From the sequence record PP738785.1: a stretch of DNA of 64,000 nt. One strand, written 5' to 3'. The DNA comes from Klebsiella phage vB_KpnP_Tribble_ER49. Shown in pieces: positions 20,353-21,380 of this stretch. The notes beneath the pieces are model-generated. The model made no database searches. It had not been told where the DNA came from and was given only the letters and a program-made list of their open reading frames with translations. Position 1 is the stretch's first letter, and the number at the start of each line of letters is the position of its first letter. Position numbers and translations under genes: made by a program.

Positions 20353-20574
20353 TCATTTATTGTCCTGTGGACAATATACCTCCCAATCTGTATGTTTTTG
20401 AGTTAGAAAGTTTTCTACTGTATCTGTATAGGTATCCCCATTAGAGAATCTAACAAATATTTCTCCTCTTTGGTTCAGTGTTAGTAGTGTTCCACTATTC
20501 CATAGAGGTCTACGTATTACAGCCCCTAGTTTCAGCATTAATAATGCTTCTTTAGAAGTCATACAATGTACCAA
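20353..20574 (-). CDS. DUF2829-motif small protein, paralog 1 of 5
   Basis: 'MTSKEALLMLKLGAVIRRPLWNSG' fits the A-L-x-x-L-K-x-G-x-K/V-x-R-x-x-W pattern. Confidence 0.5.
   Translation of the reverse strand: MVHCMTSKEALLMLKLGAVIRRPLWNSGTLLTLNQRGEIFVRFSNGDTYTDTVENFLTQKHTDWEVYCPQDNK
20359..20375 (-). promoter_or_regulatory. candidate vRNAP early promoter hairpin (element b)
   Basis: 'attgtcc-TGT-ggacaat' preceded by 'attcattt'; overlaps the last codons of the upstream ORF. Confidence 0.4.
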
Positions 20575-20798
20575 TTGTGAGAGTCATCGAATATAATTGT
20601 GAATTTACTCACTGGAGTAAATATCCTGGAATTATTATCACTACAGTAAATATAGTCTCCTTTGATGTAGTAATAAAGATCTTGTTTCATCCAGTCAGCT
20701 CTGATTTTACATCCGATCTTCATTGCTAACAGGGCTTCCTGAGTCGTCATACAATTTCCACTCCATACCTTCGTATTCTTCGATAAACTTATTAACAT
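20559..20798 (-). CDS. DUF2829-motif small protein, paralog 2 of 5
   Basis: 'MTTQEALLAMKIGCKIRADWM'. Confidence 0.5.
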   Translation of the reverse strand: MLISLSKNTKVWSGNCMTTQEALLAMKIGCKIRADWMKQDLYYYIKGDYIYCSDNNSRIFTPVSKFTIIFDDSHNWYIV

Positions 20799-20946
20799 TA
20801 CATACTAGATTACTGAAACTTAAAGTGGTACATACATAACGAATAGAGCTATCCTGTATTTCATAATAAGCATCAAAGTCCTCCCATTTAGTGGGAACAA
20901 CCTTGCAACCTATTTTCATTGCAAGTAGTGCTTCAGCTGTTGTCAT
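20707..20946 (-). CDS. DUF2829-motif small protein, paralog 3 of 5
   Basis: 'MTTAEALLAMKIGCKVVPTKW'. Confidence 0.5.
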   Translation of the reverse strand: MTTAEALLAMKIGCKVVPTKWEDFDAYYEIQDSSIRYVCTTLSFSNLVCNVNKFIEEYEGMEWKLYDDSGSPVSNEDRM

Positions 20947-21136
20947 TGAATAACTCCCAACCGTCTATGTCACCATAGCAAGGTATATAGTCTTCGAGTT
21001 CCAGATGAGGAGTACCATCCTCATTGATAGTAAGATTATCAATGGGGTCATATTCTACCCATTCACCTGGATTCCATGAGTCCCTTCGTACTTTGCATCC
21101 TAGTTTAAGGGCTAGTATTGCTTCCTTGGTTTTCAT
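20933..21136 (-). CDS. DUF2829-motif small protein, paralog 4 of 5
   Basis: 'MKTKEAILALKLGCKVRRDSWNPGEW'. Confidence 0.5.
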   Translation of the reverse strand: MKTKEAILALKLGCKVRRDSWNPGEWVEYDPIDNLTINEDGTPHLELEDYIPCYGDIDGWELFNDNS

Positions 21137-21380
21137 GATATATCTCCCAATACCCTATACCAGCAGGTATTAAGTGTTCCAAACTATCTAAAGGTATAAA
21201 TGGGCTTTGACGCTCACTAAATAGTGTAGAGCCTACTAAATAGATATAAGCACCTGGCCCCCAGCGGCTATGACGGATTTTACATCCTATAGCTAATGCT
21301 GTTTTAAGTTCCTTTACTGTTGTCAGATTACTCATCCCCTGTCTCCAGTAGATCGATTCACAAGAGTGTTCGGAGAACAC
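21105..21380 (-). CDS. DUF2829-motif small protein, paralog 5 of 5
   Basis: 'TTVKELKTALAIGCKIRHSRWGPGAYIY'. Confidence 0.45.
   Translation of the reverse strand: MFSEHSCESIYWRQGMSNLTTVKELKTALAIGCKIRHSRWGPGAYIYLVGSTLFSERQSPFIPLDSLEHLIPAGIGYWEIYHENQGSNTSP

Follow-up and report, generated by a model that had tools for sequence, protein, structure and literature searches.

Tad2 sponges are known as single genes, each binding one to several immune signals, and both Tad1 and ModTad2 served to identify such molecules, namely glyco-cyclic ADP-ribose (gcADPR) and histidine-ADP-ribose (His-ADPR). Tad2 acts as a sponge for gcADPR and thereby blocks type I Thoeris (10.1101/2023.05.01.538930), HgmTad2 and SptTad2 bind cyclic dinucleotides too, by way of an insertion (10.1101/2023.11.15.567273), and ModTad2 binds His-ADPR as well as cyclic UMP and cyclic CMP, with Tad2_71 binding N7-cyclic ADP-ribose (10.1101/2025.08.24.671296). 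Here we describe an array of five genes for short Tad2-like proteins, P1 to P5 (cassette types A to E), in Klebsiella phage vB_KpnP_Tribble_ER49 (record PP738785.1); the whole stretch of 64,000 nucleotides that was analysed is referred to as the window. The array spans positions 20353–21335 (Table 1), and it is well supported that its products are paralogues with a reduced, "mini" form of the Tad2 fold, encoded in one early-region operon that is bounded by conserved hairpins.

Tad2 of SPO1 (89 residues) is built from helix α1, strands β1 to β5, a β2–β3 loop that bears α2 and forms the dimer interface, and helix α3 before β5; W25 and W73 stack on gcADPR, and N26, S76, T78 and D79 hold the ligand. 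In HgmTad2 the β2–β3 insertion is enlarged and binds cyclic dinucleotides (10.1101/2023.11.15.567273). Tad2 pockets lie at protomer interfaces, and the protein tetramerises along helix α1. In N4-like phages, an anti-signalling hotspot located between the genes for the primase-polymerase and the virion RNA polymerase contains Tad2, Tad3, Acb4 and Sequestin (bioRxiv 10.64898/2026.06.04.730250). No description of tandem or paralogous Tad2-like gene arrays was found in open-access papers and bioRxiv, in agreement with an earlier reading of this DNA (the sequence-only reading), which knew of no such five-member array. The exact array sequences and Klebsiella were likewise not found in the supplements of Hadary et al. 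2025 (10.1101/2025.08.24.671296), of which Table S1 was represented only in part.

All five proteins begin with the motif M-(T)-T-x-E-A-L-L-A-x-K-x-G-C-K-V/I-R...W, which includes an invariant tryptophan at about position 21, and all five have a second invariant tryptophan at the C-terminus in the context W-E/K/Y-x-Y/F/V. The shared opening, T-x-x-EAL-LA-x-K-x-GCK-V/I-R-x-x-W in the sequence-only reading, is therefore as described, and present in every member. The statement that the proteins diverge completely after it was too strong: the C-terminal tryptophan is shared, and the bodies alone (residue 17 to the end) match other types at E-values of 3e-9 to 5e-3, though the middle is very divergent. 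Among the five, mean pairwise identity drops from 54% over the N-terminal part to 14% in the middle and rises again to 45% at the C-terminus. When each type was compared, in a single comparison, with a hidden Markov model (HMM) made from the other types only, every type was matched, with E-values between 8e-10 and 7e-20 (P1 3e-11, P3 3e-16, P4 7e-20, P5 8e-10). On these comparisons the resemblance is not due to chance, and all five are mutually homologous. The conserved parts are the N-terminal helix, β1, the first tryptophan and the last strand; what lies between them is hypervariable and corresponds to the ligand-pocket part of Tad2.

The assignment to DUF2829 (now PF11195), the family of Tad2, holds for the group and only partly for the single proteins. 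Individually, P2 alone exceeds the Pfam gathering threshold (29.4 bits, with the threshold at 25; E 1.2e-6), P5 (16.2 bits) and P4 (14.7 bits) score below it, and P1 and P3 have no Pfam match; type B orthologues carry a precomputed PF11195 assignment. A word-indexed search with an alignment of 26 sequences returned 149 relatives, nearly all on contigs of about 76 kb, and an exhaustive family-profile search of 1.84 billion representatives returned 152 proteins at E ≤ 1e-3. Of 100 distant profile matches that were scanned, 86 are PF11195 proteins and no other family recurs. The wider family comprises more than 100 clusters in metagenomes, and every one of the 125 sequences in the family alignment has the first tryptophan. 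When the five were combined with 46 short relatives, the resulting profile matched ModTad2, SPO1 Tad2 (gp34.65), HgmTad2/AcrIIA7 and SptTad2 in the PDB at E-values of 1e-6 to 2e-3; this wider profile was needed, as PDB sequence searches with P2 alone or with a profile of only the five found no Tad2. At the family level, profile comparison thus points clearly to homology with PF11195 proteins and with the solved Tad2 structures.

The predicted structures agree with this assignment. In the AlphaFold2 model of P2 (predicted local distance difference test, pLDDT, 95.5), a helix at residues 3–11 is followed by strands at 16–18, 27–30, 35–38 and 43–46, a helix at 47–54 and a strand at 60–62, and the model of P3 (pLDDT 87.7, core above 90) has an identical order of elements, with a disordered C-terminal tail. 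When compared with the PDB by Foldseek, the top 20 chains for P2 were all Tad2, with template modelling (TM) scores of 0.59–0.69 at a probability of about 1 and the next match at TM 0.27; the top 17 chains for P3 were also all Tad2 (TM 0.55–0.63). Both models contain the N-terminal helix, the five-stranded antiparallel sheet and the short helix before the last strand that characterise the Tad2 fold, and we infer from homology to the modelled P2 and P3 that P1, P4 and P5 adopt it as well.

The five genes are consecutive on the minus strand, and their starts were placed at ATG codons that are conserved across relatives. The five consecutive ORFs (open reading frames) are as the sequence-only reading had reported, and its sizes are revised: the range of 67–91 residues came from using the longest ORFs with GTG, TTG or ATG starts, and the conserved ATG codons give 63–79 residues. 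Successive genes overlap by 32, 14, 44 and 4 nucleotides, each pair in shifted frames, which fits translational coupling. A GGAG-type Shine-Dalgarno sequence precedes the ATG of P1 to P4 by 7–10 nucleotides, and those of P2 and P3 are formed by the conserved Trp-Glu codons (TGGGAG) of the preceding gene; the start codon of P5 lies within an ATGA overlap. The C-terminal tails HENQGSNTSP, DDSGSPVSNEDRM and NDNS are the conserved 5' end of the next cassette read in another frame.

The region 19800–22000 is 96% identical to Klebsiella phage vB_KpP_FBKp27 (FBKp27) and 82–89% identical to other Efbeekayvirus Klebsiella phages; by sequence, the source phage is one of the N4-like Klebsiella phages of this genus (Schitoviridae). 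A search with an HMM of the five located an array at the same position in each of the eight related genomes examined. The number of cassettes in the window and these relatives ranges from three to seven: the order is A-B-C-D-E in the window, FBKp27 and K17alpha62, B-C-D-E in P19-618 and B-C-E in pKP-BM327-1.1, and relatives also carry an additional, more diverged type, Y. Type E is present and last in the array in nine of nine genomes. Chimeric cassettes occur, C/D in HS106 and a Z/A chimera also among the relatives. Type B exists as two alleles, whose first 17 codons are 86–92% identical in nucleotides and whose last 9 codons are 100% identical, with a core of 42 codons at about 41% nucleotide and 21% amino-acid identity. 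This core swap, together with the C/D and Z/A chimeras, leads us to infer recombination at the conserved cassette junctions. In GADU21 (ON004963, positions 4131–4335) the type B cassette is broken up into two ORFs (MKTKEAILALKLGCKVRRESWAPGQWVEYDAPP and MHPLNNTFSEDGSPYLELEDYIPCYGDIDGWELFNDNS), either as a frameshift pseudogene or through a sequencing error.

Between genomes, array proteins are 45–85% identical compared with 83–100% for flanking genes, and conservation within the early region is lowest over the array and the two genes that follow it. The view of the sequence-only reading that this is an arms-race locus is borne out by this low conservation, by the variation in copy number, and by the chimeric cassettes and swapped cores. 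The two genes just 3' of the array (19667–20286, minus strand; 112 and 92 residues) have no Pfam match and are unusually divergent, at 59–85% identity among relatives, with no match to the 92-residue gene in FBKp27; the variable zone thus reaches beyond the array. The 112-residue ORF (19948–20286, "ALAIGC") was considered as a sixth member and rejected (HMM E 2.4).

Pairwise ratios of non-synonymous to synonymous substitution rates (dN/dS) are below 1 in nearly all comparisons and for every type, mostly 0.04–0.7 with a few pairs near 1 (P1, type A, 0.04–0.6; P4, type D, 0.03–0.4), at dS values often above 0.5 and up to more than 1. No gene-wide positive selection was seen in these pairwise ratios, and all five types are under purifying selection, as real, selected genes that evolve fast. 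Where residues are identical in the shared motif, the same codon is used in only 18 of 54 codon pairs; the 5' motif is therefore conserved at the protein level, and gene conversion as its origin was rejected on this count. The cassettes are old paralogues maintained by selection on the protein.

The array lies between two conserved hairpins. N4 virion RNA polymerase promoters are hairpins with a stem of 5–7 bp, a loop of 3 nucleotides and a central purine on the template strand, and they are situated upstream of early genes. The hairpin at 21380–21366, 30 nucleotides upstream of the P1 ATG, has this form in stem, loop, template-strand purine and position, and in the N4 early region AGCTGC-tcc-GCAGCT-TTTGG precedes gp15 and GTTGC-ttc-GCAAC precedes gp1. 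Its sequence GTGTTC-tcc-GAACAC and flanks (ttattaac...tcttgtgaatcg) are identical in eight of nine genomes, whichever cassette comes first; the one exception is GADU21, in which this hairpin was not detected. A distant array-bearing contig from an uncultured source, L009, has ATGCAC-tcc-GTGCAT at the equivalent position. The early promoter-like hairpin of the sequence-only reading is thus a real element, and by analogy with N4 it is a putative virion RNA polymerase promoter. The terminator-like hairpin at 21410–21393, upstream of it, matches N4 early-region terminators in form and ends the preceding transcription unit.

The boundary hairpin at the 3' end (20376–20358) is identical in nine of nine genomes and is also found at the end of the arrays in L009 and in L014, another uncultured contig. 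It has two sisters in the early region, and the three hairpins, spaced about 2 kb apart, follow the pattern (T)ATTGYCC-aca-GGRCAAT(A) with stems of 7–8 bp. These ACA-loop hairpins do not differ in sequence between those related phages that have the region, the class also occurs in L009 and L014, and they could be a second promoter class or a processing signal. In HS106 the hairpin CATTGCCC-aca-GGGCAATG with its flanks occurs twice, at 1815 and 1942, 127 nucleotides apart, as a local duplication of the regulatory element.

The mini domain is found in several other contexts. Many relatives of 59–90 residues share the mini layout, and two mini domains are joined in one protein in 48 of the 146 distant representatives. 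Three proteins (P0140, P0142 and P0145) join an N-terminal mini domain to a canonical Tad2 domain that is complete and recognisable by WNGKG, the long insertion and W-x-A-S-Q-T/S-D-x-L-A-x-DW. A metagenomic protein of 943 residues (contig L013, 3001–5832) has Clp_N domains and, after them, five mini Tad2-like domains in tandem, and it is a covalent counterpart of the gene array; the gene next to it is an IS605 OrfB / Cas12f-like TnpB. Four to five copies each are present on the uncultured contigs L009, L010, L011 and L014, and at least eight copies lie within 1575 bp on L015. L009 is about 70% identical to Efbeekayvirus over only 15–27% of its length, and L015 has no match to any cultured phage. 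Among cultured phages, type E was found by tblastn in Klebsiella Efbeekayvirus only. The early region of phage N4 contains no member of the mini Tad2-like family; the array is not a general feature of N4.

In the mechanism that we propose, the hairpin at 21380–21366 would act as a virion RNA polymerase promoter, and the array would then be made in the first minutes of infection. Its products would form oligomers as Tad2 does and act as a sink for nucleotide-type immune signals of the host, with the products of Thoeris, cyclic-oligonucleotide-based antiphage signalling systems (CBASS), pyrimidine cyclase systems for antiphage resistance (Pycsar) or undiscovered systems as candidates. Different cassettes, which are gained, lost, fused and core-swapped between the conserved junctions, would confer different or altered specificities. 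Such a sponge function is the best-supported mechanism and, in our estimate, evenly poised. It is favoured by family membership, by the invariant stacking tryptophan, by the fusion to canonical Tad2, by probable early expression and by the arms-race-like dynamics, and it is weakened by the missing half of the pocket, by the missing dimerisation element and by the negative results for a tested mini homologue, Tad2_80.

A number of observations have to be set against it. Four of the five proteins miss the PF11195 gathering threshold individually. When aligned to SPO1 Tad2, the five lack about 22 residues at the β2–β3 insertion, and in the models of P2 and P3 a turn of 2–4 residues leads from β2 to β3; since SPO1 Tad2 dimerises through this insertion and HgmTad2 uses it as its cyclic-dinucleotide pocket, the oligomeric state of the array proteins is uncertain. 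The equivalent of W25, the first ligand-stacking residue, is invariant in all five. N26 is retained only in P2 and P5, the position of W73 lacks a tryptophan in all five, and the S-x-T-D motif (S76/T78/D79) is not recognisable in any of them; between the first and last tryptophans there is no other tryptophan, except W26 in β2 of P2. On this mapping to SPO1 numbering, made by sequence alignment and topology, the gcADPR pocket appears to be half conserved. The missing insertion, the loss of W73 and S-x-T-D, and the restriction of N26 to P2 and P5 define a "mini" subclass of the PF11195 family with half of the canonical pocket. Tad2_80 (73 residues) aligns in one stretch to the profile of the short family, without the insertion and without a tryptophan at the W73 position, and it did not inhibit Thoeris I, Thoeris II, E. 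albertii CBASS or Bacillus Pycsar; three other assays were not possible with it, as no transformation was obtained (10.1101/2025.08.24.671296). The early transcription and the promoter role are suggested by resemblance and position. The sequence-only reading had proposed a panel of sponges with different specificities, and this stays a hypothesis, because most of the contact residues and the insertion are lost and Tad2_80 was inactive in four assays.

The same losses bear on a reading in which the fold has been kept for another job: nucleotide binding would have been lost, and the proteins would be small protein-binding modules (for instance, early host-takeover factors or inhibitors of a defence or housekeeping protein) whose paralogues track variable host targets. 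We consider this rather unlikely, while giving it serious weight. It would account for the disappearance of most canonical ligand-contact residues and of the insertion and for the inactivity of Tad2_80 in four signalling-system assays, and it accords with the finding that about a quarter of tested sponge homologues (19 of 84 among Acb2, Tad1 and Tad2) inhibited none of seven systems (10.1101/2025.08.24.671296) and with the abundance of small host-directed proteins of unknown function in N4-like early regions. It is harder to reconcile with the invariant first tryptophan in the β1–β2 loop, which is a ligand-stacking residue in Tad2, and mini domains that are naturally fused to a complete Tad2 point to a common pathway. 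Moreover, no role in protein binding is established for any PF11195 member, and the anti-CRISPR claim for AcrIIA7 was not reproduced. A further reading keeps the pockets and places them between different proteins: the five products would co-assemble via the conserved α1 into one or a few mixed oligomers with asymmetric pockets, and shuffling of cassettes would yield combinatorial specificity. Tad2 pockets do lie at protomer interfaces with tetramerisation along α1, which is the most conserved part of the paralogues; co-production from one transcript is probable because the genes overlap; and two mini domains are fused in 48 of 146 representatives, alongside the mini-plus-canonical fusions and the five-domain protein. 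A fixed obligate complex is ill matched by a cassette content that varies freely from three to seven, with any of A, C, D, Y and Z missing, and conservation of α1 is general in PF11195 proteins, homotetrameric ones included, so that such co-assembly seems improbable to us.

That the five are decaying duplicates, or ORFs that arose by chance between genes in a region rich in promoters, as the annotation of FBKp27 implies, is effectively refuted. Three of the five are not annotated as genes there, and the GADU21 cassette is split by a frameshift. Frameshift decay, which the sequence-only reading had named as a possible refutation, is absent from the array itself: all five frames are intact in both the window and FBKp27, and in the other relatives every cassette that is present has an intact frame, save for the one in GADU21. 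The breadth of the metagenomic family, the dN/dS values below 1 in every type, the confident AlphaFold models of P2 and P3, and the codon pairs that place conservation at the protein level all speak against decay. Returning to the sponge mechanism, a bolder form of it is a modular, recombining repertoire, in which the junctions serve as recombination sites and pockets at homo- or hetero-oligomer interfaces capture a range of immune nucleotides. The junctions would be the segment coding for α1–β1 and the overlap of W-E-x-Y with the next ATG, and by way of them co-infecting phages would exchange the hypervariable cores that form the pockets. We hold this form to be a speculation of low probability; if true, it would be a combinatorial anti-signalling system in a phage, perhaps directed at the signals of undiscovered defences.

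With scaffold parts that are conserved and pocket regions that are hypervariable, the array would illustrate how the scaffold of a sponge is diversified by a phage, and it is of interest to the phage anti-defence field. It also offers a collection of natural variants (five in this phage, at least seven types across the genus and over 100 metagenomic clusters) with which signalling molecules, known or not, could be fished out. As N4-like phages are candidates for therapy and the host here is Klebsiella pneumoniae, the defences that the locus would neutralise are of practical relevance.

Public annotation is corrected by this analysis, as the reference genome FBKp27 lacks annotation for three of the five genes. 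In that record (MW394388, 4366–5348) two of the five cassettes are annotated as coding sequences, and "promoter" features are placed over P4 and P5. In the K17alpha62 record (OY979417) "virion RNA polymerase" is listed over the array region, and the feature table is apparently offset. In GADU21 (ON004963) a 76-residue cassette is labelled "ATP-dependent DNA helicase" and a 112-residue neighbour "bifunctional 3'-5' exonuclease/DNA polymerase".

The gene layout of the window is that of the N4 early region. A block of small minus-strand genes runs from about 24.5 kb down to the genes for the two RNA polymerase (RNAP) II subunits, and the array lies upstream of these on the same strand. At the head of the early region, divergent from the array, is a PF21825 gene of the Sequestin type (Table 1). 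Sequestins are cited as gcADPR sponges, and given this match the phage may carry two kinds of sponge, the mini Tad2-like array and a Sequestin. A Sequestin gene is present on L009 too, where it lies upstream and on the other strand. A canonical Tad2 was looked for elsewhere in the window and not found. In the region between the primase and virion RNA polymerase genes (about 52–56 kb), the HNH_3 gene probably encodes a homing endonuclease, and the remainder has no Pfam match and no Pfam-recognisable sponge.

Table 1. Coordinates of the array, its hairpins and other features in the window.
Feature	Position	Strand	Remarks
P1 (type A), 76 aa, mini Tad2-like	21105..21335	-	W-G in place of W-N; tail HENQGSNTSP overlaps P2
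P2 (type B), 67 aa, mini Tad2-like	20933..21136	-	W21-N22 pair retained
P3 (type C), 79 aa, mini Tad2-like	20707..20946	-	most divergent (W-E-D-F); tail 71-79 overlaps P4
P4 (type D), 63 aa, mini Tad2-like	20559..20750	-	W-M-K
P5 (type E), 69 aa, mini Tad2-like	20353..20562	-	W21-N22-S-G retained
Terminator-like hairpin AGCCCTC-actg-GAGGGCT, then TAGTTTATT	21393..21410	-	from terminator scan; annotated terminator in FBKp27
Promoter-like hairpin GTGTTC-tcc-GAACAC	21366..21380	-	6-bp stem, 3-nt loop, GGA on template strand
Boundary hairpin TATTGTCC-aca-GGACAATA	20358..20376	-	3' end of array; encodes invariant P5 tail (V)YCPQDNK
Sister ACA-loop hairpins	22563-22547; 18746-18728	-	same class as 20376-20358
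Sequestin-type protein, 64 aa (MQPHEQRVVDEQSELEGKLHKL...)	23892-24086	+	PF21825 (crAss001_48), E 1.9e-18
Two RNAP II subunit genes	17763-15449	-	end of minus-strand small-gene block
Terminase	25396-27000	+	
Virion RNA polymerase, 3561 aa	41314-51999	+	
HNH_3 endonuclease with AP2-like domain	54539-55069	-	between SSB-like and AAA_24 genes, primase-to-virion RNA polymerase region

Among described systems, the closest is Tad2 itself (PF11195; SPO1 gp34.65, ModTad2, HgmTad2/AcrIIA7 and SptTad2), to which the array proteins are related at the profile level and in fold. They have in common the N-terminal signature F/T-x-EAL-x-AL-K-x-G-x-K-V-x-R-x-x-W and the C-terminal strand D/x-W-E/D-I-V, the first ligand-stacking tryptophan is retained, and both are phage-encoded and probably expressed early. 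The array proteins differ in being about 20–25 residues shorter and in lacking the β2–β3 insertion, and they are encoded by three to seven tandem, overlapping and diverged paralogues, whereas Tad2 is a single gene. Tad2_80 (Hadary et al. 2025) shares the mini architecture and is the closest mini homologue that has been tested; in contrast to the array, it is a single protein of an unrelated metagenomic virus and only distantly similar.

The hotspot of N4-like phages resembles the array as an anti-defence island of variable content. The array, however, lies upstream of the RNAP II genes within the early region, and consists of paralogues of one family instead of mixed families. Anti-CRISPR and anti-defence islands more generally share with it small, fast-evolving genes at a fixed position between conserved borders, and in both the genes come and go between close relatives. 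The families in those islands are unrelated, whereas the genes here are tandem paralogues, and the array is further set apart by conserved junctions within its genes, which are seemingly points of recombination.

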